The notes under the pieces: model-generated
Database searches by the model: none
What the model saw: the letters and a program-made list of their open reading frames with translations, nothing else
Told to the model about the DNA's origin: nothing
In this document: positions 2,139-37,272 of the stretch, piece after piece
How positions within the stretch are numbered: the first letter of the stretch is position 1
Layout: each line of letters starts with the position of its first letter
Position numbers and translations under genes: made by a program
Source: an archaeon
GTDB taxonomy: Archaea; B1Sed10-29; WALL01
Assembly (NCBI GenBank): GCA_042584585.1
Contig: JBHOSQ010000005.1
Span: 7,526 to 71,525 of the forward strand
Reading direction: 5' to 3'
DNA: 64,000 bases

Positions 2139-2199
2139 ACAGTACTAGTGAGTTTTGGTGTATTTAAAACCTGTGCAGAAAACGTTTAAACGTTTTCTG
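2139..2199 (-). terminator. 24-bp perfect palindrome (CAGAAAACGTTTAAACGTTTTCTG) spanning the stop codon, followed by a U-tract and the TATA of the next gene
   Basis: On the minus strand the order is: 12-bp stem hairpin (2176..2199) containing the TAA stop, then GGUUUUAAAU, then the ATG of the 646-aa gene at 2138. Confidence 0.4.
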
Positions 2200-2569
2200 T
2201 GCATTGGTCTTCCCAGCCGTCGTAGTGTCCACCCAGCGCATCACAACAGCTTTCTATGCCCCCATATAAGAGGTTGCAGTTCGCCGGTTCTTTGGAGGCA
2301 TAAACGTCTTCCTTAAGCGCGCTTCTTGCAGCTTCTTCACATCCATAGCGTTTTGAAGAATCATCGATGTCTTTACAAAACGCCGTGCTTTTGTATTGAA
2401 TTGCTTTTTCGAGTTTGCACTCATATGTCTCGCAGAGTTCACCACTTAAGGTTTCTGATTCAGTTCGTTCTTCGATTCCGATGGTTGCGTTTGGACTGCT
2501 AATACAGCCACCAAAAAACAACGTTAGGAGTAATACCCCCATAACTAGATTTTTTGTCCTCTCTCCCAT
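2186..2569 (-). CDS. small secreted Cys-rich (lipo)protein, 127 aa
   Basis: Signal peptide with an FFGGC lipobox-like motif and at least 9 Cys. GGTGA RBS upstream of the ATG. Its stop codon sits inside a 24-bp perfect palindrome. Confidence 0.5.
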   Translation of the reverse strand: MGERTKNLVMGVLLLTLFFGGCISSPNATIGIEERTESETLSGELCETYECKLEKAIQYKSTAFCKDIDDSSKRYGCEEAARSALKEDVYASKEPANCNLLYGGIESCCDALGGHYDGWEDQCTENV

Positions 2570-2626
2570 AAGGTCACCTCACTAAAAATGGGTTAAGGAA
2601 ACTATTTAAAACTTTCATAAAAACGT

Positions 2627-5600
2627 CTAGATATTTGCCACTGGAGCGTCCGCGAATCTAATCTCGTTGTTAGTCAAGTCAATCTCAAGGCCAAAGAACT
2701 GGATGACGTTGTCGTCCTCTTCTTCTTCATCCTCGGGAGTTCCGCTCATCGGCTTGACGCCGAACGACTCGCTGTCTGACTTTGTCTCGTTCGTTGGAGT
2801 GTAAATCATGAAGCCAGTTAGTTGTTGGGTGCTTTCGGAAGAGCACGTAACTTTCCAGCTCATTGAATCGTACCCGGAGTTTCCAGCGATAGGCCCAATG
2901 TGTCTTGGGTTCTGATAAACAGAATCGATAGAACAGTCAGTAGTGAGATTGACTTTGACATCACCGAAGGATACGTTTTCTTCGTTGTAGTTGGTAACGT
3001 ATACTTTAGCCATGAATGGCGTCAGGGTAATCGCGTCCTCTGGCAATATCAAGTCCACCTTGAGGTTCGTGTATATACTCGTTACGTTGACCTGGACTCC
3101 TACTGGAGTGCCGTACATGCTCGTGTTGTCCATTGCGCGGATGTAAAGCGTGCTCACGCCTTCGGGCACGTTCTTGAACTCGTGCTTGTAGCTCGTGCCG
3201 TTATTGGCGCCTGTTACCGCGTCACTCCATTCAACGCCGTCGAACGAGTACTCGAATTCGTCCAAGTCAGCGTCGTCGCTGTGGAACGTCACGTTAACGT
3301 CGTCAATGTCGTACTGCGGCGTGCCAGTCGGCGCCGTGATAAGTGTCGTTGGACCCTGGTTGTTCACATTCGACCAAACCATAGAGACGTTCTCGTTGCC
3401 CGCCCAGTCAACCGCCTTGATGTAAGTGTACCTAACGCCCTCACTCACGTTATAGAACCACGCTGGGCTTCCGCCGGGATCCAGTTCCCACTCGCCGTCA
3501 TCAAGCTTCTGGTAAAACGCCTTCACGTCGCTTGAGCCAGAACTGTAGAGCTCCACCATGGTAGTGGTTCCAGTGTAATTGCTGTTGTTGCCACCACTCA
3601 TGGTCAACCCCGGAGCAACCGTGTCCACTGTGATGTTCACGTTCGCCTCGTCCCCAAGGTTCCCGAGCATGTCATAAGACCGCACGTAAAGCGTGTGGGC
3701 ACCATCCGATAGACTGAACGTGTGCGAGTCGCCGCTCTCGACGCTCCAGCCCCCGCTGTCGGCCTGGACCTCGTAGTAGTCCACGTCTGCCTGGTCGCTG
3801 GCGGAGTACTCAAAAAACCCGCTCGTGACATTTGCACCCTCGTTGGGGTAAGTAATCATAATCGTTGGCCCGCTTTGGTCAATCTCGAAGTCAACCGATA
3901 CCACGTCGCTCCAAAGGACGAAGTCGGTGCACTTCAAGTAAAGCGTGTGCGTTCCCTCAAGCGTTTGGTTGGTTATGGAAGTGACGTTCTGAACGCCGCT
4001 CGTCACGTTGAAGTCGCCGTTCCAAACGCCGGCATCCATTTTGTACTGGCACTTCAGCACGGTCTGCTCCGCGTCCGTTGCAGTGACGTTAATTTCGTCG
4101 ACGAACAAGTGGTACGAATCAACAACTGGCTCGTTTATCACTGCAGTCGGCGGGCTGTTCAGTGCCGACGTGGCGTTTACCCTGACGTGGTCCTCACCGG
4201 TCTCGGTGGAGTCAGACGCCCGTATCCTGAGCGTGCGCACCCCCGAGGGCAAGAGCGTGAAGTTGTAATCGTAATCTGTGTCCGCGCTTATTCCCGTTAT
4301 CCCGGTGTCTTTCCACAAGCCGCCGTCCACGGCGTACTCGAACTTGACGACGTCGTCGTCTGGCGTGGTGAAGTTCACGACCGCCCAGTTGTTCGCAGTA
4401 ACCGTGTCGTTCGCGGGCGAGGTAATGTTAACATCCGGCGCGTGCGAGTCAACGAAAACAGTGACGTTGTCCTCGGCGCCTTTCTTGCCGGCTTCGTCGA
4501 CGTGAAGCACGTGCAGTACGTGCCAGCCCTCTGCCAAGTCCTTGAACGCGGATGGCGACCCATTCGGGTCCTTGCACCACCGCTCGTTCGCGGTGTCGTT
4601 CCAGGTGTTTAGGTAAGGGGTCGGGCAGATTGCGCCGTTGTCCAGCTTGATGAGTGAGTGGTTCACGTCCGTGGCAGTGGTGTTGTAGTACACGCCAATG
4701 TTTGCGTACCCGAAGTGCGTGCTGTTGTCCGGAATGGTTATGAAGATGTCGGGCGGGCCGCTGTCTGGAGTAATTGTTATGTCCGCTGTGGCAGACGCAC
4801 CTGCTAAGTCGTCGTCCTTCACGAGAAGAGACACTTTGAAGGTGCCGGTCAGGTTGAATTTGTGGGTGGTTACCGGGTCGGTCGTGTTCGTGAGCGTGCC
4901 GTCGCCCCACTGCCACTCGTAGAAGGCAATGCTGCCGTCCGAGTCGGTGCTGGCCGAGGCGTTGAACGTGAGTTGGTGCTCTTTTTCACCAGTCAGGGGC
5001 GCGGCAAAGTTCGCGTTCGGTGGAGTGTTGCCGGGCGCGTCCGTGATTGTGACGTAGCTCCAGTCGTTGAAGCACTTGGGCACTTCCACCTTGACGTATT
5101 GGAACGTGGTGTTGTACCCCGGAATGGTGTAGGTGTGGGTCGCCCAAAGCTGGTGGCCGCCGTCGCCCATGCTGGTGTCCAGGCTCTCAAGGCTCTGCAT
5201 CCCCGCCTGCACCCAACTAATGTTGTTGTTTGAAGTGTAAACCGTGACGTTGTCTTTGCAGCTGTGGCTTCCGCCGGACTTGACGTCTACGTTGATGCTG
5301 ACGTTTTGCGTGATGCTGACTTGGAGGTCGTGGACGTGCCACTTCTGGTACCAGTTGCAGCAGTCAACAGTCCCGCAGTGTGAGTCGGCTTGGTTGGGCG
5401 AGTAGCCTATGCCGTTGTTGCAGCCATCGCGCCATAGTGACGTGTACGTCTTCATCGGCTGGGGGCCGCTGCCTACTCCCGTAGTGGGGCTGAATGCCGT
5501 GTAACTCTCGGGGTTGGCCGAGTCAGGCATGTGAATCATGATTTGGGCGATTTTTTCGTCCGTGACGAGCGCGAAGCGCGTTGGAGTGTCGGGGTTGCCG

Positions 5601-6049
5601 ACTCCTTTCTCCGCCACTTTGTGGAAGAATCCGCCTGCCGAAGCGAAGATTTCTACTTTGCTGGTGTCGCCGTGCGGCGTCACCTCGAACTCGAAGCGCG
5701 TGAGGCCGTCGGTCTCGACTTTGAAGATGTGGTTGTTGTCCAGGTTGCCGCATTTCGTGCCGCTGCAGAACACTTCTTCCGCGTCCGACACGTCTGGCCC
5801 TGTATCAATTGGCTCCGGCGTCGGCTCCGGAGTAGCTTCCGGTGTTGGCACTGGCGTTGCTGTTGGCTCGGGAGTGGGTGTTGGTGTCACCTGCTGGATT
5901 TTTACTTGGTTGTTGACCGCGTCAATCTGGATTTGGAGTGTTTGTAGCAGCTGGCTGAAGTCCGGGCCGATGAAAGCAAAGGCTGGGCTTAGTAAAATGA
6001 TAGACATTATCACCGCAACTACGCATCTCCGCATAATTCTCATATGCAA
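2627..6049 (-). CDS. large secreted surface protein with Pro/Thr linker and multiple PKD/Ig-like beta-sandwich repeats (1140 aa)
   Basis: Signal peptide, then TPTPTPEPTATPVPTPEATPEPTPEP linker. An FYEWQWGDGT PKD-type motif and many N-x-T/S sequons. Own TATA (TTTATATA) ~25 nt upstream of the ATG, consistent with a leaderless transcript. Confidence 0.75.
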   Translation of the reverse strand: MHMRIMRRCVVAVIMSIILLSPAFAFIGPDFSQLLQTLQIQIDAVNNQVKIQQVTPTPTPEPTATPVPTPEATPEPTPEPIDTGPDVSDAEEVFCSGTKCGNLDNNHIFKVETDGLTRFEFEVTPHGDTSKVEIFASAGGFFHKVAEKGVGNPDTPTRFALVTDEKIAQIMIHMPDSANPESYTAFSPTTGVGSGPQPMKTYTSLWRDGCNNGIGYSPNQADSHCGTVDCCNWYQKWHVHDLQVSITQNVSINVDVKSGGSHSCKDNVTVYTSNNNISWVQAGMQSLESLDTSMGDGGHQLWATHTYTIPGYNTTFQYVKVEVPKCFNDWSYVTITDAPGNTPPNANFAAPLTGEKEHQLTFNASASTDSDGSIAFYEWQWGDGTLTNTTDPVTTHKFNLTGTFKVSLLVKDDDLAGASATADITITPDSGPPDIFITIPDNSTHFGYANIGVYYNTTATDVNHSLIKLDNGAICPTPYLNTWNDTANERWCKDPNGSPSAFKDLAEGWHVLHVLHVDEAGKKGAEDNVTVFVDSHAPDVNITSPANDTVTANNWAVVNFTTPDDDVVKFEYAVDGGLWKDTGITGISADTDYDYNFTLLPSGVRTLRIRASDSTETGEDHVRVNATSALNSPPTAVINEPVVDSYHLFVDEINVTATDAEQTVLKCQYKMDAGVWNGDFNVTSGVQNVTSITNQTLEGTHTLYLKCTDFVLWSDVVSVDFEIDQSGPTIMITYPNEGANVTSGFFEYSASDQADVDYYEVQADSGGWSVESGDSHTFSLSDGAHTLYVRSYDMLGNLGDEANVNITVDTVAPGLTMSGGNNSNYTGTTTMVELYSSGSSDVKAFYQKLDDGEWELDPGGSPAWFYNVSEGVRYTYIKAVDWAGNENVSMVWSNVNNQGPTTLITAPTGTPQYDIDDVNVTFHSDDADLDEFEYSFDGVEWSDAVTGANNGTSYKHEFKNVPEGVSTLYIRAMDNTSMYGTPVGVQVNVTSIYTNLKVDLILPEDAITLTPFMAKVYVTNYNEENVSFGDVKVNLTTDCSIDSVYQNPRHIGPIAGNSGYDSMSWKVTCSSESTQQLTGFMIYTPTNETKSDSESFGVKPMSGTPEDEEEEDDNVIQFFGLEIDLTNNEIRFADAPVANI

Positions 6050-6126: not shown

Positions 6127-7017
6127 TTATGTAAGGTCTATGTGGGCTGTGAGCGTAGAGCCACTAGCCGGAGAGTGTGTACTGGCTCCTTTCTCGTTGC
6201 ATAGTACTGCCGTACCGCCCCCGGCACTTATTTCTACGAGGTATACGCCGGTATTCGTGCTTATGGCATTCGTTATGCGGGTTGTACTCAAATCAAACTC
6301 TAGTTTATCGTTAGTACCAAGATTTTTACCTGAGCCCTCCGAACTCCATCCAGTAGTGTCAAGCCCAGTAAGGCTGGGAATGAACGTTGTTGAACTATCC
6401 GACGTTACGAAAATGTTTGGAGCTGGATTACTGGTTTGGGATTTCTCAAAGTTCAGGGTGAGAGTTGCCGAGCTTATAGGATTAGTACCTACCTCATTGA
6501 AGTCAAAGAGCAAGTACGCCTTAAGTCCTCCACCAATAATTGTGTCTACACTGCAGACTGGGAATAAACCCGTTTGGGCTTTGTTTTGGTCGTTGTCGCC
6601 GGGATAAAACAGCTCCCACGTCACTTTTTCGGGCGCGCCTTCTCCGTACTGAATCCATCCAGTCTCGGTTTGGAGCCATGCCGTCCGCGACGCAGCGTCG
6701 AACATGAGCGTGTACTGGTCTTGTAGCATGCACGTTTCCACTGCAGCGGTCGAGGGCGCGTCAGTACCCCCCTTCGTCATCTCTCCCGTGTAGTACGTGA
6801 TTGACGATGGGGCAGTCAACGGGTCGTTGCCCAAATACGGGTTGGTGTAGCCCTTCAGGCCAAGGTGGTAGTCCCGGCACTCAATGATGTCGATTTGCAC
6901 GCCCCGCTGCGTCGCCGCAGGCGTCAGCACGGCGTTCAGAATCAACAAAACGCTTGCGATGAACCCCATCACCGCAATTATGATCAATAAGTACTCAACT
7001 GCTCCCTGGCCCTTCAT
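6127..7017 (-). CDS. class III signal peptide (archaeal type IV pilin-like) protein, 296 aa
   Basis: N-terminus MKGQGAVEYLLIIIAVMGFIASVLLIL: a short basic leader, Gly, then Q+1 and Glu followed by a hydrophobic helix. Confidence 0.7.
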   Translation of the reverse strand: MKGQGAVEYLLIIIAVMGFIASVLLILNAVLTPAATQRGVQIDIIECRDYHLGLKGYTNPYLGNDPLTAPSSITYYTGEMTKGGTDAPSTAAVETCMLQDQYTLMFDAASRTAWLQTETGWIQYGEGAPEKVTWELFYPGDNDQNKAQTGLFPVCSVDTIIGGGLKAYLLFDFNEVGTNPISSATLTLNFEKSQTSNPAPNIFVTSDSSTTFIPSLTGLDTTGWSSEGSGKNLGTNDKLEFDLSTTRITNAISTNTGVYLVEISAGGGTAVLCNEKGASTHSPASGSTLTAHIDLT

Positions 7018-7059
7018 AACTGAAAATAAGCACGATAGCTATAAAAACATTCCTTTCGT

Positions 7060-7518
7060 TTGCCTTCAACGATGCGGGGTCAAGTAACCATCGAATACAT
7101 CCTTGTCCTAGTCATAATGCTGGTCATACTCGCAACCGTGTCCATACCAACGATTGAGCAAATCGAGGTCGACGTCACCGACACCGGCAACGCAATCAAC
7201 CTGGCGGCAGTCCAGCAAAGAATCGCGTCAACCGCAAGGGAAATGAGCCTCACGGGATGCGGTTCAACCAAAAACATCACTGTCCACATCCAGCAAGACC
7301 TCTTCACACCACTAACAATCACGTGGGACGGCAACAAAGTCGGGGGCCAACTAAAATTGATGAACGGCACCGACCGCGACCTCAAAGACCTCACGTTCCC
7401 AGACACGATAAAAGTCGAGGCCTCCAACAGCACACAATTCCATTACTGGGACCTTCGCTTCACCAAAGACTGCGGGACGTTCACTTCATCAGGCTGCATA
7501 GGGGACTGCGGCATATGA
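7060..7518 (+). CDS. class III signal peptide pilin-like protein
   Basis: N-terminus MPSTMRGQVTIEYILVLVIMLVILATV. RG|Q cleavage-site-like motif with E at +5. Confidence 0.7.
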   Translation: MPSTMRGQVTIEYILVLVIMLVILATVSIPTIEQIEVDVTDTGNAINLAAVQQRIASTAREMSLTGCGSTKNITVHIQQDLFTPLTITWDGNKVGGQLKLMNGTDRDLKDLTFPDTIKVEASNSTQFHYWDLRFTKDCGTFTSSGCIGDCGI

Positions 7519-7898
7519 AAGGGCAAACCGCGCTCGAAATGGTCCTCCTCGCCGCACTCATAATCGTCGTCGCCGGAATGGTATACGTCTCCTACTCCGG
7601 AGAGTCAGCAGACACCATCGCTGAAACCACCATCCGCACCCAAGCCAACATGATACTCGCCAAAGGCGCACTCACAAACGCCTCCTGCGCCAACGCCCAA
7701 CTAATCTACTTCAACGAAACAACAACCAAACGCCGCTACGAATTAACAATAGTCCCAGACTACTGCGGCCCGTTCCTCTTCACCCAGCCCGCCCGCGACA
7801 ACATCCAGGGAAGAATCAGCGAAGCCCTCGGCTGCCGCTACGAAGACAACGGCACATGCCAAGGCAAGAATTATATAGTCTCGCTCGCAAAGACATAA
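7515..7898 (+). CDS. class III signal peptide pilin-like protein (128 aa)
   Basis: ATG at 7515 overlaps the upstream TGA (ATGA). N-terminus MKGQTALEMVLLAALIIVVAGMV. The ORF track extends it to 7257, but that upstream part lies out of context in GC-rich shadow sequence. Confidence 0.7.
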   Translation: MKGQTALEMVLLAALIIVVAGMVYVSYSGESADTIAETTIRTQANMILAKGALTNASCANAQLIYFNETTTKRRYELTIVPDYCGPFLFTQPARDNIQGRISEALGCRYEDNGTCQGKNYIVSLAKT

Positions 7899-7908
7899 CG
7901 GGGAGAAA

Positions 7909-9042
7909 TTGGAGGGAGAGGCAAAAGCGCTATGCATTGCTGCGGCAGCCATAGGGCTAGCCATCGCGCCGGACGCCTCGCTTGTCCTCGGCTGCCTCGC
8001 CGGAATCGTCACCGGATTAATCCCCGGCCTGCACCCAAACACCTTCCTCCCAATGGCCAGTGGCACTGCATTCATAATCGGCCTCGCCGTCTCCCATTCG
8101 TTCTTCGACTTCCTGCCCGCCATAATGCTCGGCGCACCCGACGAAGCCACCTCACTCTCAGTGCTCCCGGGCCACAAGATGCTGCTCCGAGGAAAAGCGC
8201 TCGAGGCCTTCCGCATCACCATACTCGGCGGGCTCTTTGCCGGAATACTCGCAGCGCTCTTCATCCCGTTCCTCGGGTTCGCAAACCAGCCCATTCTAGT
8301 GCCGATTGTTTTGGTATTCACGCTCGCCACAATGCTCGCCAACGCAAAACACAAGACAAAAACAATTCTGGTGATGATTGCCGCGGCATTCATCGGCCAC
8401 CACGCGCTCGCGGCCAACGCATTGCCTGCCATGCTTGCCGGGTTCTTCGGCACCAGCACAATCATTTTTTCGCTCGCCACCCGGCCGGTGATTCCGCCGC
8501 AGCTCCCGCACGCAAAAGCAAGAATCACCCACCGCGAGGCCGCGTTGGCGGCGGTCGCGGGATGGCTCGCGGGACTTTTTCCCGCGGTCTCGCCGTCAGT
8601 TGCAGCAATGGCTCTTTGCCCAAAGATGAAGCACCGAGAATTCCTCGCGGTGCTCGGCGGAACCAACACGGTTTACGCAATCGCCGCAATACTTGCAATT
8701 AACATTGTCGGCAGGCCGCGGAGCGGAGCCGCCATTGCGGTGGGGCGCCAAGACTTTTTGTTCGTCGCCGGCTCGGCGCTCGCGGCAATCGGGATTTCGG
8801 CGTGGCTCGCGTGGCACTTGTCAAAACCCTTGGTGCAGTGGTTCAACAAAGTCAACCACCGCGCGGCGTCGGGAATTGCGCTGATAATCGTTGTTGGGAT
8901 TGCGGGGCTGGGCGGCACGACCGCACTGGCCTTTCTCGCTGTTTCCACACTGGTTGGCCTGGTGTGCCTCGCGTGGGGAGTGAGGCGCAGCACGTGCATG
9001 GCAAGCCTTTTAATCCCGGTCCTGCTTTACTACTTATTGTGA
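7909..9042 (+). CDS. polytopic membrane protein, DUF112/TctA-like (377 aa)
   Basis: About 10 predicted TM helices. Motif GIVTGLIPGLHP fits the G-x3-G-x2-P-G-x-G-P TctA/DUF112 signature, and a second internally duplicated half is present. See the finding on its alternative reading as an aspartyl peptidase. Confidence 0.5.
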   Translation: MEGEAKALCIAAAAIGLAIAPDASLVLGCLAGIVTGLIPGLHPNTFLPMASGTAFIIGLAVSHSFFDFLPAIMLGAPDEATSLSVLPGHKMLLRGKALEAFRITILGGLFAGILAALFIPFLGFANQPILVPIVLVFTLATMLANAKHKTKTILVMIAAAFIGHHALAANALPAMLAGFFGTSTIIFSLATRPVIPPQLPHAKARITHREAALAAVAGWLAGLFPAVSPSVAAMALCPKMKHREFLAVLGGTNTVYAIAAILAINIVGRPRSGAAIAVGRQDFLFVAGSALAAIGISAWLAWHLSKPLVQWFNKVNHRAASGIALIIVVGIAGLGGTTALAFLAVSTLVGLVCLAWGVRRSTCMASLLIPVLLYYLL

Positions 9043-9395
9043 AAATCAGCCAGACCGCAGTCGAGTTCATTCTTGAAACCGCGAAGAATGCGTACCCCCG
9101 CGAGTTCGTGGGGATGCTCCGCGCCAACGAAGGTGTGATTACCGAAATCTTGATTATTCCGGGGAGCAAGTTCGAAAAGAATTATTCATCAGTCCTCACC
9201 AACATGGTGCCGCTGGACCCCTCGATTGTCGGCTCGGTGCACTCACACCCAGGCCCGGCGAGGCCGTCGCGCGCGGACCTGCGGTTTTTCGAGAGGGGCA
9301 TGGTTAACCTCATCGCTGGCTACCCCTATGAGTTCGGCAACCTCGCGGCTTTTGACGCTCACGGCAGCCCGACAAGCCTAGAAATAGTTAAATAG
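9039..9395 (+). CDS. JAMM/MPN+ family metalloprotease (about 118 aa)
   Basis: Motif VHSHPGPARPSRAD matches H-x-H-x7-S-x2-D, with the conserved Glu (EF) upstream. GTG start at 9039 overlaps the stop of the preceding gene (GTGA). The ORF track start at 8802 is probably an over-extension. Confidence 0.7.
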   Translation: MKISQTAVEFILETAKNAYPREFVGMLRANEGVITEILIIPGSKFEKNYSSVLTNMVPLDPSIVGSVHSHPGPARPSRADLRFFERGMVNLIAGYPYEFGNLAAFDAHGSPTSLEIVK

Positions 9396-9417
9396 CCCCG
9401 GTGCATATTCACAAGCG

Positions 9418-10050
9418 ATGCGGGGCTCTCTTACGCTCGAGTTCATACTCTCGCTAGTCCTGCTCATAGCGACGGCAGGCGGGTTTTTGATGCTGTCGTA
9501 CGGCCAAATCGAGAACAGCGTGATTGCCTCGACGCAGTACAAGGCCGAGGCCATGGCAATGTCCACCGGCTCCGCGCTGACGCACTTTTTCGCGACCGAG
9601 CCCGAGTACGGTTCGTACATGGAAATGGACTTCAGGGGCTTGCCACAAGAGGCGGCCGGCCAGTCCTCGTTCGGCATGCCCGGGTTCGGGGTGTACGCCA
9701 GCGGGCAGGAATGCAACGTGAGCATTGATATCGACAACAGCATGGTCATCGTAAACATACTTGTCTACCGAATCGAGTCCAGCGAGCCGGAACTCGTGAC
9801 GGCAAAGTACCCGTTCGCAAGTGGGGTAAGCGCCGGAGCCTGCAGTGGCGAAATAACTCTTGTCAAGACCGTGGGCTGCGGCAAGGGCATAAGCGTTTCC
9901 ATGCAGGCGGATGGCGGCTACTTGATTAACGAGCTTGGGATTAGGGCGTTTTTGCCTGGCGGGCCGACGGCTTCGCCCCTGCCATTCACCGGTGACAATG
10001 GCGAATCTACACCCATACCAACTCCGCCTGGGGGGTGGCAACTGGCATGA
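9418..10050 (+). CDS. class III signal peptide pilin-like protein (210 aa)
   Basis: N-terminus MRGSLTLEFILSLVLLIATAGG. Confidence 0.7.
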   Translation: MRGSLTLEFILSLVLLIATAGGFLMLSYGQIENSVIASTQYKAEAMAMSTGSALTHFFATEPEYGSYMEMDFRGLPQEAAGQSSFGMPGFGVYASGQECNVSIDIDNSMVIVNILVYRIESSEPELVTAKYPFASGVSAGACSGEITLVKTVGCGKGISVSMQADGGYLINELGIRAFLPGGPTASPLPFTGDNGESTPIPTPPGGWQLA

Positions 10051-10403
10051 AAGGCCAAATCTTTGTCGTGGACTTGATGTTCGCACTCGTAATCATTGTG
10101 CTCGCGATTGGCATAACCACGCAGGCGTTCGATTACCACCTGCAGCAGACTGCGTCAACGGTCGAGCACGCCAAGATGCAGCAGCTCGCGATTGACGCCG
10201 CGGCAGTCACCTACTACAAGGGGGCTGCTTCTTACTATTGGGGGCTCGAAGAAAAGATAGGTCCCTTCTGCGGCGCCCAAGGGGGCGCGGTCAGCATAGG
10301 CTACACGCTGGAAGAGTCTCCCGTGGCCGGCAATACCTGCGTCGGGAGCACGCGCGGCACGGGCGACAACAAAGTGGAGGTGTTCGTCTGCAGAAGGGAG
10401 TAA
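10047..10403 (+). CDS. class III signal peptide pilin-like protein
   Basis: ATG at 10047 overlaps the upstream TGA (ATGA). N-terminus MKGQIFVVDLMFALVIIVLAIG. Confidence 0.7.
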   Translation: MKGQIFVVDLMFALVIIVLAIGITTQAFDYHLQQTASTVEHAKMQQLAIDAAAVTYYKGAASYYWGLEEKIGPFCGAQGGAVSIGYTLEESPVAGNTCVGSTRGTGDNKVEVFVCRRE

Positions 10404-10648
10404 TCTTCACTGCCGAAGCCATCTACGTAATCGTGGTGGTCTTCGCCGCACTCATTGTTTTCTTTGCGTCGCTTCCATCGGTCAATGTCCCGAGCTATGA
10501 CTCGGTCCAGGCCATGAAAGTGATCCACGACATGGGCGAAGAGCAGACCATCAAGCCCCCGCCGGGCTACAACACCACTGGCTGCGAGGGCAAGACCACA
10601 GCCATGCTGGACTACTACAACGAAACCCTGGAGGTGTGCATGACTTGA
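10388..10648 (+). CDS. pilin-like ORF with no canonical start codon (...LQKGVIFTAEAIYVIVVVFAALIVFF...)
   Basis: Pilin-like hydrophobic N-terminal segment in the frame of ORF 10238..10648. There is no in-frame ATG/GTG/TTG between the TTG at 10238 and the KG|V motif. Boundaries are uncertain. Confidence 0.3.
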   Translation: MQKGVIFTAEAIYVIVVVFAALIVFFASLPSVNVPSYDSVQAMKVIHDMGEEQTIKPPPGYNTTGCEGKTTAMLDYYNETLEVCMT

Positions 10649-11331
10649 AGGGATTCATGGGCACCGCGGCCGCAATGCTGTTCGCGTTCTCGCTGGTCAC
10701 CGCAGGGTATTCATTCATGCTCTCGCAATCCGACCTGAGCTATTCGTCAATGGCGGGACCCGTCGTCGAAAGCACGCGCTGGGCCGCCGAGGCAGAGCTG
10801 TTCGAGTGCGCCACAACGGGCGACACGAACTTCAACGGAGACGCGTACAAAGAAGCGATTGGCATGAACCTGGTCGGCGTCAATGGCAATGCCAGCACCA
10901 TAAACAATTACGGGCTTGGCTCAATGAAGCTGTCCGTCCACTTGGAGCGCGACTATTCCCCAACAATCCACTTAAAACCCGGACCTCCCCTGCAGTGGAC
11001 TGTCTGTGACACCGAAGCAGATTCGCTCACCTTCACGCTGTCGGGCGACCTCCCCGCGTCCGCGATGTCCATCCAGAAACTCTTGGGGGCGGGGGTTTAC
11101 TCCTACACTCCTGCTCCTGGAGAGTCCGGCACTTACTGGATTTCTGGCAAGGACTCTACCGGCACGGTATACAGCAACAAAGTAACTGTGACAGCCGCCG
11201 CGGCGCCAACCCCAACGGCAATTCCGACTGCCATCCCGACAGCAATGCCGACTGGGATACCGACTGCGTTCCCAACAGCAATGCCAACCGTGCTGCCGAC
11301 AGCCTTCCCACCATTCGTACCCTTTTTCTAG
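10636..11331 (+). CDS. class III signal peptide pilin-like protein with C-terminal (x-P-T-A)n repeat
   Basis: Start is GTG at 10636 or TTG at 10645, giving MKGFMGTAAAMLFAFSLVTAG. C-terminus is APTPTAIPTAIPTAMPTGIPTAFPTAMPTVLPTAFPPFVPFF, encoded by a 12-nt tandem repeat. Confidence 0.6.
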   Translation: MHDLKGFMGTAAAMLFAFSLVTAGYSFMLSQSDLSYSSMAGPVVESTRWAAEAELFECATTGDTNFNGDAYKEAIGMNLVGVNGNASTINNYGLGSMKLSVHLERDYSPTIHLKPGPPLQWTVCDTEADSLTFTLSGDLPASAMSIQKLLGAGVYSYTPAPGESGTYWISGKDSTGTVYSNKVTVTAAAAPTPTAIPTAIPTAMPTGIPTAFPTAMPTVLPTAFPPFVPFF

Positions 11332-30709: not shown

Positions 30710-30779
30710 AATCCTCTGCCTCGCTCGATTATTTATACCCCCTTCAACTAATATACCTAACTCCCGCAGAGTGATTTCT
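30710..30779. promoter_or_regulatory. divergent promoter region (two TATA-like boxes) between the hypothetical Zn-ribbon gene and cdc48
   Basis: ATTATTTATACCC and CTAATATACC AT-rich boxes sit ~25-30 nt from each start, inside a 70-nt intergenic spacer. Confidence 0.35.
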
Positions 30780-32942
30780 ATGGCTGACATAAAGCTTAAG
30801 GTCCAGGAAGCGATGCAGAACGACGTAGGCCGCGGAATAGTGCGCATCGACACCGAGACACGCGAGGCACTCGGGCTCACGTCCGGAGACATAGTCCAGG
30901 TCAAGGGCACCACCGACACCGTCGGCGTCGTCTGGCAGTGCTACCCACAGGACGAAGGCCTCAAAATCATCCGCATGGACGGCCTCATTCGCCAAAACTC
31001 CGGAGTCGGCATCGGCGACTACGTCAAAATCGAGAAGACCGAGCTAAAGCCAGCCACAAAAATAACTCTCGCGCCATCAAAGCCCGTGAGGTTCTCACCA
31101 GGCTTCGAGTCATACGTCCAAAAGCGACTAATCGGCAGGCCCCTAATCAAAGGCGACCGCATACTCATTGGTGTGTTCGGCACAAGCCTCGTCATGATAG
31201 CAACCAAAACCACTCCAAAAGGCTTCGTGCAAATCACGCAGGACACTCAAATCGAGCTCAAGACCGAGCCAATCAAAGAAATAGTCGGAGTCCCCCAAGT
31301 CACTTACGAAGACATCGGCGGAGTCAAGGACGAAGTCCACAAAGTCCGCGAAATGATTGAAATCCCACTCAAGCACCCCGAACTGTTCGAGCGCCTCGGA
31401 ATCGAGCCCCCGAAAGGCGTCCTCCTCCACGGCCCGCCGGGCACAGGCAAGACACTTTTGGCAAAGGCAGTGGCAAACGAAAGTGACGCCAACTTTATTT
31501 CCATCCAGGGCCCAGAAATTATTTCCAAGTTCGTGGGCGAAGCCGAGGAAAGGCTCCGCCAAATCTTCAAGCAAGCAGAAGAAAACGCGCCAACAATAAT
31601 CTTCATCGACGAAATCGACGCCATCGCGCCAAAGCGCGGCGAAGTCACCGGCGAAGTAGAGAAGCGTGTCGTCGCCCAACTATTGGCCTCAATGGATGGG
31701 CTGCAGACCCGCGGCAACGTAGTCGTAATCGCGGCCACCAACCGAGTCAACGCAATCGACGAAGCGCTGCGCCGCCCAGGGAGGTTCGACCGAGAAATTG
31801 AGCTCGGCGTCCCCGACCGCAAGGGCCGCAAGGAAATCCTGCAAATTCACACGCGCAACATGCCGCTTGAAGGGGTTGACCTGGACAGGATGGCAGACAT
31901 CACCCACGGCTACGTTGGCGCCGATGTCCAAGCCCTTGCCAAGGAAGCGGCCATGAAAACACTGCGCCGCCTAATCCCCAAAATGAACCTTGAGGGCGAG
32001 GACGGCATCCCCACCGAAGTCCTGGAAAACCTTAAGGTCACCAAGGACGACTTCATGGACGCGTTCAGGGAAGTCCAGCCCAGCGCCATGCGCGAAGTCC
32101 TCGTAGAAGTCCCGAACGTGAAGTGGAAGGACATCGGCGGCCTCGACGACGTCAAGAAGCGGCTCAAGGAAGCCATTGAATGGCCAATCAAAAACCCCAA
32201 GATGTTCACGCGACTCGGAATCCGCCCGCCGAAAGGAATTTTCCTGTTCGGCCCGCCCGGCAGCGGCAAAACCATGCTCGCCAAAGCAGTGGCAACCGAG
32301 AGCGAGACAAACTTCATCGTGGTCAAAGGCCCGGAACTCCTGTCCAAGTGGGTTGGCGAGTCCGAGCGTGGCGTGCGAGAAATCTTCCGCAAGGCCCGCC
32401 TTGCCGCACCCGTAGTAATCCTGTTCGACGAAATCGACGCGCTCGCGCCAAAGCGCGGCATGCATGCGGGCTCAGCAGCTACGGAAACAGTGGTCAACCA
32501 ACTGCTGACCGAATTGGACGGCGTTGAAGAATTGAAGGACGTGGTAATCTTAGCAACGTCAAACCGCCCGGACATCGTCGACCCAAGCCTCTTGAGGCCG
32601 GGCAGGTTCGACAGAATGATCTTCGTTCCGGCTCCGGACGCAAAGTCGCGCCTCGCAATCTTTGAGGTGCACACCAAAAAGATGCCTCTCGCCAAAACAG
32701 TGAAGCTTGAGACGCTCGCGTCTTCCACAGACGGGTTCTCGGGCGCAGACATAGAGGGCGTGTGCCGCGAGGCAGCGATGAACGCGCTGCGCCACAACAA
32801 GAAAGCCAAAGAAGTAACGGAAAAGGACTTCGAGAAAGCGATGAAGGCGGCGAGGCCGTCCATCCAGGAAGATGACTTGAAGCGCTACCACGGGTTCATG
32901 AAAGAGCACAAGTCAATAGACACGGCGAGCTACATCGGCTAG
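30780..32942 (+). CDS. Cdc48/VCP-like AAA+ ATPase (double AAA domains)
   Basis: N-terminal double-psi barrel, then two AAA modules (GPPGTGKT; GPPGSGKT) with second-region-of-homology motifs. Confidence 0.9.
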
Positions 32943-33520
32943 AGGAACGGCAGCAGCAGGTAAGCCGCGGCCGCGAGCGTGAGGAACCACACAACCGGGT
33001 TCCACTGCAGTACTTTGTTCCCGTCCAGCGGCGGGAATGGAATCAGGTTGAAAGCTGCCAAGAAAAAGTTTATGTACGCGCCCCAGTTCCCGATGACCGC
33101 GAGCAAAGTGGTTGAGGAATAGCTGAGTGCGAGGAACCCAACGCCGACACTGAGGTTAACCAACGGGCCAGTCACCGCAATCAATCCCTGTTCCCGGAGC
33201 GTGAGGCGCTTGCCTCCAATCATCACCGCGCCCGGCGCAGCAAAAATCAGGCGCCCCCCAGTCATTATCGCCATGGCCAGTGCCAACGCAAGGCCTTGCC
33301 ACCACATCCTGAAGAACGCGATGCACCCGAACTTCTTGGCAACCCACCTGTGGCCCATTTCGTGGAAGACAAACCCGGTCCCGAGCGTCAGGAGTATAAT
33401 CGGGAAGCTCGTGGTCAATGCGGGCAGCAGGCCGTGTGAGTACACCGACGCCATGGAAAACGCTAGGCTAAGAGTGACCCACGAAATGAGTATGTGCATA
33501 AGCTCCTGGTTTTCCATCAA
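32939..33520 (-). CDS. M50 (site-2 protease) family membrane metalloprotease
   Basis: HEMGH HExxH motif within a TM helix, plus an LDG motif; 193 aa polytopic. Confidence 0.7.
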
Positions 33521-33573: not shown

Positions 33574-33750
33574 ATGAGTAAAGACCTTTGGAAAGATAGC
33601 GCTGCACAGCTGTCCATGGAGCTAATCCTGGTGCTGGCAGCAGTTCTCGCCGTCGCACTGCTGGCTGTTTCGTCCCTACGGGGCACGGCAGTGGACGCCG
33701 AGAAAGTAGGCGGGAGGACCGCCAAAAAAATCCTGAAGGAGCTGAAATGA
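33574..33750 (+). CDS. small pilin-like protein (58 aa), class III/Flp-like
   Basis: MSKDLWKDSAAQLSMELILVLAAVLAVALLAV. Below the ORF-track size cutoff. Its TGA overlaps the next ATG. Confidence 0.5.
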   Translation: MSKDLWKDSAAQLSMELILVLAAVLAVALLAVSSLRGTAVDAEKVGGRTAKKILKELK

Positions 33751-33935
33751 TGGGGAGATTGATTGATGACGACCGCGGACAAGTCTCTGCAGAGCTCATC
33801 GTGGTCATCGCCGCGCTTCTTGCGGTGGCGATGTTCTTCGTGAGCAGCCTGAACGACACGGTGACACAGGCTGGCGACAAGATGCAGGACAAGACCGGCG
33901 ACGTCTTGAAACAGATAGACGGCATTGGGAAGTGA
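33747..33935 (+). CDS. small class III signal peptide pilin-like protein (62 aa)
   Basis: MMGRLIDDDRGQVSAELIVVIAALLAVAMFF: RG|Q with E at +5. Confidence 0.6.
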   Translation: MMGRLIDDDRGQVSAELIVVIAALLAVAMFFVSSLNDTVTQAGDKMQDKTGDVLKQIDGIGK

Positions 33936-34312
33936 TTTCCGTGCGCGGCCAGGTCTCGCTTGAGTTCATGGTAGTGCTAGCCGTATTCCTCGCCGCCATG
34001 GCGCTTTGGCTCACCGGGGTAAACCAGGCCAGCGGCGCAATCACCGTGGCGCTTGGCGCGAAGCAGTCCGTGCTCGCGGCCGAGCGCCTGGCGTCAACAA
34101 TCAACGCGGTGTGCGTCATGGGCAGCGGCAACTCGCTCGACACCGAGGCCTATGTCGCCGGCAACGCAAGCGTCATTTACGACAGCGCGTTGGTGCTGGA
34201 CACAACCGAAAAAACAGTTTACTGCGAGTTCAACGACTTCACTGTTTCAGGCAAGCAAGAGTTCACCGCCACAAACACCGATGGATTCGTCGAAGTCACA
34301 CGCAAAGAGTGA
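33932..34312 (+). CDS. class III signal peptide pilin-like protein (126 aa)
   Basis: MISVRGQVSLEFMVVLAVFLAAMALW. Confidence 0.65.
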   Translation: MISVRGQVSLEFMVVLAVFLAAMALWLTGVNQASGAITVALGAKQSVLAAERLASTINAVCVMGSGNSLDTEAYVAGNASVIYDSALVLDTTEKTVYCEFNDFTVSGKQEFTATNTDGFVEVTRKE

Positions 34313-34631
34313 ACGACACGGGCTCGTAATCGAGCTCGGGGGTCACGGCGGTGCGCTCGACAGTGGCACACTTATCCCCGTCGCCGCTGTGGCCAATTAG
34401 TTCCCGCAATCCCTCAAGGCAATCTTCGTCGTGCTCGCACTTCTGCTTCATCGCGATTTGGGCGTAGTCGCCCGCCTGCTTGTAGAGCACAACGTCGCTG
34501 TAGTCTTCCGCGGCAACCGAAGACAGCGCCGCGATGAACGCGACGAAGCAAAGCAACGCGACCATCGCCTCAAGGCTGAACACAAACCCTTTACCAGACA
34601 GAAAGCGCAACAGCTTCACCCCCCTCCTCAT
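34296..34631 (-). CDS. class III signal peptide pilin-like protein (111 aa)
   Basis: ...SGKGFVFSLEAMVALLCFVAFIAAL. Confidence 0.6.
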   Translation of the reverse strand: MRRGVKLLRFLSGKGFVFSLEAMVALLCFVAFIAALSSVAAEDYSDVVLYKQAGDYAQIAMKQKCEHDEDCLEGLRELIGHSGDGDKCATVERTAVTPELDYEPVSFTLCV

Positions 34632-34956
34632 CTAAAAACACGAGCCGCTTGATTCCGTCGCCATTAATGGAGTAATTGTGGTGGCAGTACGTGGCTTCTT
34701 TCCCAATCTGAGCAGAGTCAATGGTCTGCGGCACCACCCTGCCAACGCTCTGGTCGACTTTGGCGAGGCACTTCGGGTCGTTAATCAGGCGGTCGCTCGC
34801 CGCAATCAATTCTTTCTGTTTTTCGGCGGTGAAGTGCATTGCCGCCGCCTCCCCTGTGACGAGCTGCGTCCATAAGAGGCACAGCTGCACGAGGACTAGC
34901 ACGAGCACGAACGCGATGCTGGCGTCAATCATCCAAACTTGGCCTTTTTCCAACAT
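34591..34956 (-). CDS. class III signal peptide pilin-like protein
   Basis: Internal start MLEKGQVWMIDASIAFVLVLVLV. Confidence 0.55.
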   Translation of the reverse strand: MLEKGQVWMIDASIAFVLVLVLVQLCLLWTQLVTGEAAAMHFTAEKQKELIAASDRLINDPKCLAKVDQSVGRVVPQTIDSAQIGKEATYCHHNYSINGDGIKRLVFLDEEGGEAVALSVW

Positions 34957-35158
34957 ACCACCTCGCGTATGACCCGTTGCCGCGGGACTCGCCGAGCGCA
35001 ATCACTGCTTTTTGCTTGCCGGCTTCCTGCGACGCCGTGATTATCCCGAGCAATTCTTCGTCGCCGAGCGCTTCGGCTGCTCGGGAGTGCGCGTTCATCA
35101 CCACGGAGACGAGGGCAATCATCATCATGACTGCGAGCATTGCCTCAAGAGTGTTCAT
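34925..35158 (-). CDS. pilin-like small protein (77 aa) lacking the K/R-G leader
   Basis: MNTLEAMLAVMMMIALVSVV has a type IV pilin-like Glu at +5, but no basic-Gly leader and no upstream in-frame start. Confidence 0.4.
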   Translation of the reverse strand: MNTLEAMLAVMMMIALVSVVMNAHSRAAEALGDEELLGIITASQEAGKQKAVIALGESRGNGSYARWYVGKRPSLDD

Positions 35159-35609
35159 ACCAGCACCCCATCGGAATCAAGTAAACGCCTTTGCTGTTCC
35201 CAACAGTTATCGTGGCGCCAATCGCGTCGTACCTGCCCCCCATAACAGCAGTGATGTTGCTTGGCAACCGCTCCACCCTAATTTCGCTGTTGGGAGCCGA
35301 CTCCAGCAGCCTTGAATACCCGGGCCCACCGGTGTCGCCGTACCACACGTCGATTCCTTGCGCACGCATTTCTTTTTTCCAGTCCGCTAGTGCCGCATCC
35401 AATTCCGTTTGGCTCCCGGAATATTCCACGGCGCGCCAAAACGTTTCCTCGAAGTCCTGCTCTTTGACCGTGATCGCCTGGTGCTCAAGAAAAAGCTGGC
35501 GCGTCTCGCGTATGCCGTTGGCTTCGGTTTGGTAAATCGAGAGCGCGTGGAACGCCGTGGGCACGAAAGACAAAAGTACTAAGAATGCTACTACTCCTCT
35601 CCCCATACC
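35145..35609 (-). CDS. signal-anchored hypothetical protein
   Basis: Probable start at the internal MGRGVVAFLVLLSFVPTAFHA (signal/TM segment) followed by a soluble domain. Confidence 0.4.
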   Translation of the reverse strand, partial: GMGRGVVAFLVLLSFVPTAFHALSIYQTEANGIRETRQLFLEHQAITVKEQDFEETFWRAVEYSGSQTELDAALADWKKEMRAQGIDVWYGDTGGPGYSRLLESAPNSEIRVERLPSNITAVMGGRYDAIGATITVGNSKGVYLIPMGCWYEHS

Positions 35610-35647
35610 GTTGGTTAGGGACGAGCAAACTTTTATCGCTTTCGGTC

Positions 35648-35995
35648 CTAGGAGTACTGCTCTGCCAGGTCTCCGGCGATTGGGAGCTTGTACTTCTTGC
35701 CCTGGTACGCCTTTACCATCAGCACTATCACTAGGATAAACCAAACGAGGGACAGTGGCCCGGCGGCTATCCAGCCGATGACAGGAACGACTATGAACAA
35801 GTTAAGCAGGCCGAACACGATGATGGACTGCACTGCGTGGAACCTAACAAACTTGTCGTCGTCCTTCAAAAGGTAGACCAGTAGCCCACTAACCCAACCC
35901 AGTAGATAGGCCAGCGCAGCTATGCTGTTGCTGTCGACTGTTGCCTTGGATTTTGCAGGGGCTTTTTTTGTTGCCTTGGCCTTTTTCGTTGCCAT
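35648..35995 (-). CDS. DUF4870-like small membrane protein (paralog 1)
   Basis: Lys-rich N-terminus (MATKKAKATKKAPAKSKA), then ...FVRFHAVQSI... and TM helices. Confidence 0.45.
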   Translation of the reverse strand: MATKKAKATKKAPAKSKATVDSNSIAALAYLLGWVSGLLVYLLKDDDKFVRFHAVQSIIVFGLLNLFIVVPVIGWIAAGPLSLVWFILVIVLMVKAYQGKKYKLPIAGDLAEQYS

Positions 35996-36021
35996 AAGCG
36001 CCAATAACCCGTTCTGTGTAT

Positions 36022-36345
36022 TTAAGCATTGTGGGGCACGCTGTGCCTTTCGGCGACGCCGCCCGCCCACGGAAGCCCGAACCTTTCGCCTTGCGCGGCC
36101 TTGACGATCAGCACCGCCCACAGCACGACGCCCAGCAGCCACACCACCGGAAGCAGCAGTATCCCGAGCACACTGGCTATCAAGACCGTCTGCACGAGCG
36201 TCAGCAGCCCAAACACGGCGATTGACTGCATGGCGTGGAACCGGGCGTACTCGTCGTTTCGGCTGAACAAGTACACGAGGCCCCCGCTAAACCAGAAAAA
36301 GGTGTAGGCCAGCATGGCCATGGCGCGAGAATCAGTGTTTGGCAT
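36022..36345 (-). CDS. DUF4870-like small membrane protein (paralog 2)
   Basis: ...YARFHAMQSIAVFGLL... motif shared with the downstream paralog. Confidence 0.45.
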   Translation of the reverse strand: MPNTDSRAMAMLAYTFFWFSGGLVYLFSRNDEYARFHAMQSIAVFGLLTLVQTVLIASVLGILLLPVVWLLGVVLWAVLIVKAAQGERFGLPWAGGVAERHSVPHNA

Positions 36346-36450: not shown

Positions 36451-37272
36451 TTGTGGATTTACATGGAGCTTGAACATCTAAAGCAAGAACGGGACAAGCT
36501 TAACACCGAGACCCAGAAGCTGCGCAGCGAGTCCCAAGAAACGACTGGCCGCGTGAAGCGCCTACGGGTCTCGCTGAAAGACGCCAAGTCCAAGCGCGAC
36601 CAGGAAAACAAGCTCGTCAAGGAATTCAAGGACAAGCGCGACGAAGTCAACAAAAAAATCAAGTCCCGCATCTCAGAGCTCAACAAATTCCAGGAAGACC
36701 TGGCCAAGCTCAAGACCACTTCCGGCCCGATGCACCAGACCCGCAAGGAACTGGAGCGCCTGGAGTGGAAGGTCCAGACCGAAGTCCTCAACGTCAAGCA
36801 AGAAGAAAAACTTGCGAAGCGCATCGCAGAACTCGAGGAAGCGTGCGCGGCGAGCGACGAGTTCAACGAAAAAAGGAAGAAGCTGCGCAAAATCACTGGC
36901 GAGCTCGACGAGCTCCGCAAGGAAGCGCAGGCGTATCACGAAGTAATGCTCCAACACGCTCGGGACTCCGAGCACTACCACGAAGAAGTCAAGAAAGCGT
37001 ACGACCAAATCAAGAAAATCGAGCCCGAATTCAAGGAAGCCCAGCAAAAAGTCTCGCAGGCAAAGCGAGAGGCCGACGAGGCGCACAAGACCTACGTCGA
37101 AAAATACAAGAAGACCAAGGGCGCCGCAAGGGTCGAGCAGGATAAGGTCGTGAAGAAAAAGGTCAGGGCCATGAAGGCCGAGGCCGACGACTTGATGAAG
37201 GCATTCAAGACAGGCAAGAAGCTCACGACCGAAGAGATCATGATTATCCAGGGGTACGGTGGCAAGGAATGA
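36451..37272 (+). CDS. archaeal coiled-coil protein (COG1340-like)
   Basis: K/E-rich heptad-repeat sequence throughout. TATA (AGCTATAAAAGG) upstream. Confidence 0.5.
   Translation: MWIYMELEHLKQERDKLNTETQKLRSESQETTGRVKRLRVSLKDAKSKRDQENKLVKEFKDKRDEVNKKIKSRISELNKFQEDLAKLKTTSGPMHQTRKELERLEWKVQTEVLNVKQEEKLAKRIAELEEACAASDEFNEKRKKLRKITGELDELRKEAQAYHEVMLQHARDSEHYHEEVKKAYDQIKKIEPEFKEAQQKVSQAKREADEAHKTYVEKYKKTKGAARVEQDKVVKKKVRAMKAEADDLMKAFKTGKKLTTEEIMIIQGYGGKE

Follow-up and report, generated by a model that had tools for sequence, protein, structure and literature searches.

We analysed a 64,000-nucleotide (nt) stretch of an archaeal contig (JBHOSQ010000005.1, positions 7,526–71,525; hereafter the window) and concentrated on seven small genes, cluster B, which lie at 33574–35606 between the gene for an M50-type metalloprotease and a tandem pair of DUF4870 genes. 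They form two convergent operons, g1-g2-g3 on the plus strand and, in the order g7-g6-g5-g4, the minus-strand operon (Table 1). These are real genes, kept together as a conserved unit, and we are highly confident that their products are pilin-like proteins with class III signals. With less assurance, we think it rather likely that they constitute the subunit set of a type IV filament resembling those of the Epd and Tad systems, with g1 and g2 as the major subunits and g3 to g7 as minor or tip subunits. A first-pass annotation, made from the sequence alone, had counted six or seven pilin-like genes at this locus; the higher count holds and the lower does not, and the protein that was described as 'signal-anchored' is g7, which also has a class III-like beginning. 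The open reading frames (ORFs) and N-termini that were quoted are present as written.

The window is archaeal, encoding CDC48, RFC, PheRS, ABCE1 and LonB. The nearest database proteins are the NCBI models ACFLQ2_02445, _02455 and _02465, from a metagenome-assembled genome (MAG) labelled as unclassified 'archaeon', and the next nearest come from Candidatus Diapherotrites/Iainarchaeum MAGs. These models were reached through homology searches; look-ups of exact window protein sequences, in an index without the window's contig, returned no match. All seven genes were found in the same order in at least eight related contigs from DPANN archaea of the Iainarchaeota type, with identities down to ∼30%. 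The convergent set of three plus four genes, beside the M50 and CDC48 genes, is seen in contigs L001/L007, L006, L011, L003/L004/L009 and L013, with identities to the window of ∼60% for L001/L007, ∼46–50% for L003/L004/L009 and, for g5, ∼34% for L013 (GC content 39%). On the short contig L012, the minus-strand operon is present with its order kept. When compared with L001 and L006, all seven genes had a lower proportion of non-synonymous than of synonymous differences (pN < pS), and the ratio of the corresponding rates, dN/dS, was 0.13–0.55. The most constrained gene is g1 (dN/dS 0.13; 88% identical in L001); the values for g4 and g6 were 0.22 and 0.28–0.42, respectively.

Judged by sequence, all seven families conserve the class III pattern at the N-terminus. 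A short basic leader ending in Gly or Ala, followed by a hydrophobic segment of ∼20 amino acids (aa), was found for g1 to g5 and g7 in all the lineages examined, and for g6 in L012 and L013 only. We scanned the six frames of the 64 kb for [KRA][GA] with 22 uncharged and mainly hydrophobic residues after it, an acidic residue being allowed only at +5 or +6. There were 22 matches, and those with [KR]G (or the AA of g1) at the start of an ORF were confined to two regions: 6127–11331 (cluster A), with seven genes, and 33574–35606, with five such matches plus g6. The match at g6 corresponds merely to untranslated GAG codons upstream of its ATG, and g7 fails the filter. Short hydrophobic ORFs are easily over-interpreted, and the products could instead be unrelated small membrane or secreted proteins with ordinary Sec signal peptides or transmembrane anchors, as might also be argued from the sub-threshold PF04021 scores of the window's own proteins. 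However, Q+1, S+3 and E+5 are invariant in the g1–g3 orthologs and 13 of the 18 match PF04021, N-termini of this sort are restricted to two clusters of the window, and an invariant charged residue within the hydrophobic region is atypical of Sec signals. We give such an explanation almost no weight. Since the leader and the acidic residue are conserved in orthologs, the pilin-like reading of the first-pass annotation is upheld against one of Sec peptides or membrane anchors.

The evidence is direct for g1 to g3, which on their sequences are pilins of the Epd/DUF361 type. Each has Q+1/S+3/E+5 after a Gly/Ala site and ahead of a hydrophobic helix, and the invariant columns among 18 orthologs from six lineages are these three residues and two Ala. 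PF04021 (Class_IIIsignal, DUF361) was matched at E ≤ 0.01 by the 13 orthologs mentioned above (best E 3.8e-7) and Flp1_like by five of the 18 (best E 9e-5). The window copies of g1–g3 are just short of the curated cut-off, and g4–g7 have no PF04021 match. At +9, g1, g2 and g3 of the window have V and not the L of the PF04021 motif QXSXEXXXL. The two shortest proteins, g1 and g2, resemble each other (BLASTP E 2e-9). Against Flp1_like (PF16982), g2 gave E 0.002 and 18 bits, which does not reach the cut-off of 33.5; it also matches ArlG and Arch_flagellin weakly (E 0.02–0.035), through the N-terminal helix only, and its orthologs in L006 and L009 bear a precomputed weak PF04021 mark. The g3 protein is 99% identical to an NCBI model of 123 aa, with orthologs at 60–63% identity, and has a C-terminal domain of ∼95 aa with a conserved Cys pair. 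Sequence searches of the PDB with g2 and g3 gave no match. We regard g1 as the candidate major subunit.

In contrast to these, g4 to g7 belong to tiny families, with 10 to 15 proteins among billions. Profile scans with g7 gave just two loci each in genome contigs and in metagenome contigs (two GTDB species), so these families are narrow. In the g4, g5 and g7 families, [KR][GA] stands immediately ahead of the ∼20-aa hydrophobic helix. The g4 motif [KR][GA]/[FI]VF[ST]xEA (a slash marks the predicted cleavage site) is found in the window, L001, L003, L006, L009, L011 and L013, with the variant KG/FLMSYEA in L012 given a TTG start; a leaderless g4 in L012 was considered and rejected, as this upstream TTG restores MKSSKG/FLMSYEA. 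Four Cys are largely conserved in g4, the first pair being absent in L006. The g5 protein has Q+1, Asp at +6, a conserved SDRLINDP-C-LA motif and a Cys pair, and in the family pattern [KR]G/Q-x-x-x-x-D the Asp is the sole invariant column across 17 members, down to ∼27% identity; searches returned 14 homologs in 5.8 billion proteins and 15 representatives in 1.84 billion. The g7 protein is identical to an NCBI model of 153 aa and has only 10 homologs; its family keeps the motif M[GRK][RK]G/[FIV][VF]xF[LV]L. Its AlphaFold2 (AF2) model (pLDDT 81) has helices at 3–61 (alpha1, ∼58 residues) and 66–82, then five to six strands over 85–151, a predicted layout like that of a pilin, with a long N-terminal helix and a beta-sheet. 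The conserved Cys pairs of g3, g4 and g5 would fit an extracytoplasmic location.

The one feature of cluster B that goes beyond expectation is g6. A stop codon stands six codons before the ATG of g6 in the window, L001, L006 and L016, with no ATG, GTG, TTG or near-cognate codon between them, and L003 likewise has no start codon upstream. Therefore, the protein of the window's clade begins M-N-T-[LI]-E. Distant orthologs, identified by operon position and a C-terminal Y/S-R-W-F, retain a canonical class III signal: MKYKG/QITMEAIIAI in L013 and MNTEG/QSSIELLIAV in L012. On alignment, the window's clade is without five residues spanning the cleavage site, and E is still the fifth residue of the shortened protein. 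Four residues (E5, A9, R66 and W67) are invariant, and a C-terminal Y-x-R-W-[YF] is conserved. Pfam searches with the leadered orthologs found no pilin family, PF04021 included. These comparisons show g6 to be a pilin derivative whose leader was lost within the window's clade, and for which leader cleavage is no longer necessary or no longer possible. The first-pass description of this protein (MNTLEAM) as 'unprocessed or pseudopilin-like' is thus supported and can be sharpened, with distant members of the family keeping the canonical leader.

A deletion of ∼5 codons in one Iainarchaeota-type clade would have removed the G/Q site and left the initiator Met at +1 with Glu still at +5; Asn2 would block removal of the Met. 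Archaea are not known to formylate Met, and g6 could therefore enter the filament or its tip without a prepilin peptidase. That g6 is a 'pre-cleaved' type IV pilin, acting as a cap or primer, is a proposal that we make tentatively and hold to be somewhat doubtful. If it is true, nature has performed an experiment on the purpose of the leader peptide; a leaderless g6 would allow the roles of E5 and of the leader peptide to be tested directly. In a limited search of the literature we found no description of a leaderless pilin of this kind.

From these features we infer filament assembly, a division into major and minor subunits, a role for some of them at the tip, and processing by a peptidase. 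The structure would be an archaeal type IV filament (TFF) of the 'system 1' type of a DPANN archaeon; TFF system 1 has been reported in some DPANN, and its main pilin is without a globular domain (bioRxiv 10.64898/2026.04.22.720090). In such a filament, g1 and perhaps g2 would be headless major pilins of Flp size, each essentially one hydrophobic-then-amphipathic helix, and g3 a DUF361-type pilin with a small globular head. The four non-canonical proteins g7-g6-g5-g4 would form a priming or tip complex, by analogy with EpdA-D and with the minor pilins of the type IV pili and the type II secretion systems (T2SS) of bacteria, and in some relatives this complex would carry an adhesin fused to a pilin, the product of the gene immediately downstream. 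The pre-proteins would insert with the N-terminus in and the C-terminus out, an A24 peptidase of the EppA/PibD type would cut after [KR][GA], and an ATPase and platform proteins would polymerise the subunits, the genes for all three functions presumably being elsewhere in the genome. No cut would be needed for g6, where the initiator Met is already at +1. The filament is probably an adhesive surface fibre.

The junction of the two operons is a variable slot among the relatives. Here, L003 and L009 encode a polytopic Fer4_5 membrane protein, a protein with Pilin_N (MRGISPIVA) and a third protein of ∼160–170 aa, the Pilin_N protein after g4 being 191 aa in L003. In L011, a 978-aa protein (2964–5900) that combines a Pilin_N signal (MRGISPIVA) with a PQQ beta-propeller is encoded directly downstream of the g4 ortholog and is a candidate tip adhesin. 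Two further observations were made at this slot. The Pilin_N protein of L009 (1876–2862, 328 aa, MRGISPIVA) has a C-terminal Hint/intein-like domain (CFPAGTMV...HNKI), and such a fusion of a pilin with an autoprocessing domain is out of the ordinary. The Fer4_5 protein (PF12801), with Cys-rich motifs of the 4Fe-4S type, is encoded between the g4 ortholog and the Pilin_N gene at 11290–12255 in L003 and at 949–1851 in L009.

Many minor-type subunits per major one, a four-gene module that resembles the logic of GspH-K (by analogy only) and the insertion of the Fer4_5 membrane protein into the operon of L003 and L009 could each be accommodated by a short pseudopilus, belonging to a type II-secretion-like or uptake machine, in place of an external adhesive fibre. 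However, fibres of the Epd and Tad kinds have headless, Flp-sized pilins like g1 and g2 as their main subunit (PMC3875500), the large pilin-fused propeller of L011 suggests external display, and DPANN are not known to have a secretion substrate or an outer structure. We consider a pseudopilus to have little chance of being correct.

A number of observations count against an Epd/Tad-like filament. The PF04021 scores of g1, g2 and g3 in the window (15.5, 20.4 and 18.5 bits) are under the gathering cut-off of 23.7, and g1 has Ala-Ala, not [KR]-Gly, ahead of Q+1. The acidic residue of g4 and g5 is at +6 instead of +5. No Pfam, NCBIfam or PDB sequence match was obtained for g4 to g7 (g5 and g7 being searched as profiles in the PDB), and by hhalign the g5 and g7 families matched the QxSxE family with probabilities of 7% and 0.5%, neither significant. 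Because this profile-profile comparison was not significant, common descent of g4–g7 with g1–g3 is unproven. The AF2 model of g5, a helix at 4–58 followed by strands, is of low confidence (pLDDT 60), and Foldseek found nothing in the PDB at E ≤ 0.001 with the model of g7. The assignment of major and minor subunits is based on size and conservation alone. Finally, neither the 64-kb window nor the 20-kb flanks examined in the relatives yielded a peptidase, ATPase or platform gene. Within the window there is no GxGD motif of an A24 peptidase, and the sole Walker A match of the secretion-ATPase type lies in CDC48. Pfam searches with its candidate membrane and large ORFs found no biogenesis gene, the membrane candidates being TctA, MscS-like, SpoIIM and Band 7 proteins or having no match. 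The first-pass claim of 13 or more pilin-like genes in 64 kb without the biogenesis genes is borne out, with 14 candidates in clusters A and B together. Such a separation is already known from Methanococcus maripaludis, whose pilin genes occupy at least four loci, none of them shared with the genes for the ATPase and platform (PMC3875500).

The absence of detectable homology between g4–g7 and any pilin family would also suit a system in which only g1–g3 are pilins, and g4–g7 are bitopic membrane proteins that have a class III-type or signal-anchor N-terminus but are not filament subunits, such as assembly or alignment factors, or surface-anchored proteins of the Sulfolobus bindosome or ArlF/ArlG kind. 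The leaderless g6 shows that at least one member can do without cleavage, and the C-terminal part of this protein is short, charged, poorly conserved and without Cys; g7 is without a fold match. Set against this are the position of [KR][GA] right before the helix with an invariant acidic residue 5–6 residues further on (g4, g5 and ancestral g6), the retention of E at exactly position 5 of g6 despite loss of the leader, the pilin-like secondary structure in the model of g7, and the sharing of an operon by g4–g7 and Pilin_N adhesin-like proteins in the relatives. On balance we judge this arrangement unlikely and prefer the Epd/Tad-like filament with all seven proteins as subunits.

On the minus strand, the overlaps g7/g6, g6/g5 and g5/g4 are 14, 32 and 41 nt. 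Two 4-nt overlaps had been reported on the plus strand; that of g1 and g2, an ATGA, is present, but that of g2 and g3 is doubtful because it requires a GTG start at 33932, and a start at 33941 leaves a gap of 5 nt. The GTG at 33941 is favoured by a Shine-Dalgarno-like site (ggaagtga), by the NCBI model and by orthologs that begin MRGQVS or MKGQVS. The convergent 3′ ends of g3 and g4 overlap by 17 nt (34296–34312), as the first-pass annotation had stated, and similar overlaps are seen in L001 (17 nt, 10353–10369), L006 (37 nt, 2285–2321) and L013 (18 nt, 10734–10751); the overlap is retained wherever a lineage is without inserted cargo genes. Since the coding ends of g3 and g4 overlap, the 3′ ends of the two transcripts must overlap in antisense orientation. 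Shine-Dalgarno-like sites, GGAG/GGTG, lie ahead of g1 (GGGGAG, together with an AT-rich box), g2, g3 (with the 33941 start), g5 and g6 (GGGGTG). An AT-rich TATA-like box is found ∼30 nt upstream of the first gene in each operon, that of g7 being GATAAAAG at ∼30 nt before the ATG. Rfam gave no match in the whole window, and scans for bacterial-type promoters and terminators gave background levels only.

Table 1. Genes of cluster B and its immediate neighbours (window coordinates; a slash marks the predicted cleavage site)
Gene	Position	Strand	Length (aa)	N-terminus	Remarks
g1	33574–33750	+	58	MSKDLWKDSAA/QLSMELILVLAAV...	headless pilin, mature form ∼47 aa
g2	33747–33935	+	62	MMGRLIDDDRG/QVSAELIVVIAAL...	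headless pilin, g1 paralog
g3	33941–34312	+	123	MRG/QVSLEFMVVLAVFLAA...	alternative GTG at 33932 gives 126 aa
g4	34296–34631	-	111	MRRGVKLLRFLSGKG/FVFSLEAMVALL...	site ...SGKG/FVFSLEAMVALL
g5	34591–34956	-	121	MLEKG/QVWMIDASIAFVLVL...	
g6	34925–35158	-	77	M1-N-T-L-E5-AMLAVMMMIAL...	without leader
g7	35145–35606	-	153	MGRG/VVAFLVLLSFVPTAF...	opens minus-strand operon
M50	32939–33520	-			small membrane metalloprotease, site-2 protease type, PF02163; divergent from g1
DUF4870	36022–36345	-			membrane protein, PF09685; tandem paralog
DUF4870	35648–35995	-			membrane protein, PF09685; tandem paralog

The identities given earlier to the flanking genes were confirmed. The M50 protein matches PF02163 at E 5.6e-12 (45.9 bits; cut-off 27.2) and has FHEMGHRW (HExxH) and an NxxPxxxxDG region, and the two DUF4870 proteins match PF09685 at E 4e-8 and 6e-7 (33.5 and 29.9 bits; cut-off 25). 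The Lys-rich stretch of the second DUF4870 paralog, which had been described as a tail, is N-terminal (MATKKAKATKK...). The M50 gene adjoins g1 in L001, L003, L006, L009, L011 and L013; however, the whole housekeeping block (CDC48, RadB-like, NFACT, PheRS) is equally syntenic, and a dedicated pilin-processing role for M50 was set aside. DUF4870 has one copy in L006 and L011 and none in L001, L003 and L013, and was rejected as part of the system on account of this variable presence. We found no evidence for M50 or DUF4870 as functional partners. On the far side of the cluster, a conserved neighbour at 36451–37272 encodes a coiled-coil protein of 273 aa, rich in Lys and Glu and assigned to DUF7121 by synteny with L001 and L011, for which no link to the pilins was seen. 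The CDC48 of the window (30771–32942, 723 aa) is intein-free; its ortholog in L001 (5473–9003, 1176 aa) has an intein (Intein_splicing, LAGLIDADG_3), and the copy in L013 gives a weak intein match.

The seven class III-like ORFs of cluster A were checked only as far as was needed for cluster B, and Pfam found no pilin family among their proteins. There is weak similarity between A2 (7069–7518) and g3 (E 2.6e-6) and between the ORF at ∼10388–10648 and g4 (E 0.002), and A5 (KG/QIFVVD) has the Q...D+6 pattern of g5. The pilin-like ORF at 10376–10648 (...QKG/VIFTAEAIYVIVVV) has no ATG, GTG or TTG within 25 codons upstream. A strong GGAGGTG site at 10376–10382 stands 5 nt before a CTG at 10388, and initiation at this CTG would give the leader M-Q-K-G; the mature N-terminus starts exactly where the preceding gene has its stop codon (10401–10403). 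The 10636–11331 protein, MHDLKG/FMGTAAAMLFAF, ends in a PT-repeat (PTAIPTAIPTAMPTGIPTAFPTAMPTVLPTAFPPFVPFF), with weak PT and Big_9 matches, and this end may be a C-terminal anchor or sorting signal. Mid-cluster, at 7909–9395, two other genes separate the pilin-like genes A2-A3 from A4-A7; they encode a polytopic membrane protein of the TctA family (PF01970, E 3e-24) and a metalloprotease of the JAB/MPN type (Prok-JAB, E 3e-9). Beside the cluster, at 198–6049 on the minus strand, are genes for proteins of 1140 and 646 aa with Sec-type signal peptides. The former is a possible adhesin, with a Pro/Thr/Glu-rich linker and many repeated 'NVT/NIT' segments of Ig-like appearance; the latter had no Pfam match.

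The lifestyle of DPANN archaea is thought to be one of attachment to hosts, for which type IV filaments are the obvious tool, and their pilins are mostly unannotated 'dark matter'. Cluster B provides a cleanly delimited, syntenic module of seven pilin genes for an Iainarchaeota-type lineage, offering a candidate major pilin in g1, a four-gene set of minor pilins and a variable slot that takes adhesin-like cargo in relatives. Pilin islands in the dark matter of DPANN were predicted previously (PMC6393860). Apart from g6, cluster B is what specialists would expect, repeating the Methanococcus pattern of dispersed pilin loci.

Cluster B can be compared with several known systems. The minor-pilin tips of bacterial type IVa pili and T2SS (FimU-PilVWX-PilY1; GspH-K) share with it a four-gene operon of small pilin-like proteins with atypical N-termini, and in L011 a large beta-propeller protein follows this operon, an arrangement reminiscent of the PilY1 operons. 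However, there is no homology, the L011 propeller is of the PQQ type with its own Pilin_N signal, and a tip or priming role is an analogy only. The archaeal pilins and adhesins with Pilin_N (PF07790, 'MRGISPIVA') are linked to the locus by their presence in the same operon slot of L003, L009 and L011, where two types of class III motif thus coexist; the window's cluster B, in contrast, has no such gene, and its proteins do not match PF07790. ArlF and ArlG, archaellin-like proteins with an uncleaved N-terminal helix, are a precedent for function within the pilin superfamily without leader cleavage, although g2 matches their N-terminal helix only, no archaellum locus is present and g6 is far smaller. 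The Tad/Flp pilins of bacteria (Flp1_like) resemble g1 and g2 in having a mature form of ∼45–50 aa that is a single helix without a globular head, in some cases with Q+1, and weak Flp1_like matches were obtained for g2 and four orthologs. The score of g2 is, however, far below the cut-off, the Flp motif with Tyr at +6 is missing and the host is an archaeon.

The last comparison is with the Epd pilins of M. maripaludis (major pilin EpdE/MMP1685, arCOG06620, and minor pilins EpdA-D; DUF361/PF04021, processed by EppA), which are 67–76 aa long with Q at +1 and E at +5, and of which four minor pilins are needed (PMC3875500; PMC4858521). Sequence similarity is limited to the N-terminal motif, with the window proteins below the PF04021 cut-off, and g1 (AA and not KG before Q), g4 and g5 (acidic residue at +6) and g6 (leaderless) depart from the Epd pattern. 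Nevertheless, cluster B shares the G/Q-x-S-x-E N-terminus with Epd, a motif found in the Methanococcus pilins that EppA processes, and in size g1 and g2 equal EpdE/MMP1685, the headless major pilin (PMC3875500; bioRxiv 10.64898/2026.04.22.720090). Both systems also have short headless pilins (67–76 aa in Epd; 58 and 62 aa for g1 and g2) beside pilins of 120–150 aa, several minor pilins, and pilin loci without genes for the ATPase, platform and peptidase (PMC3875500; PMC4858521).

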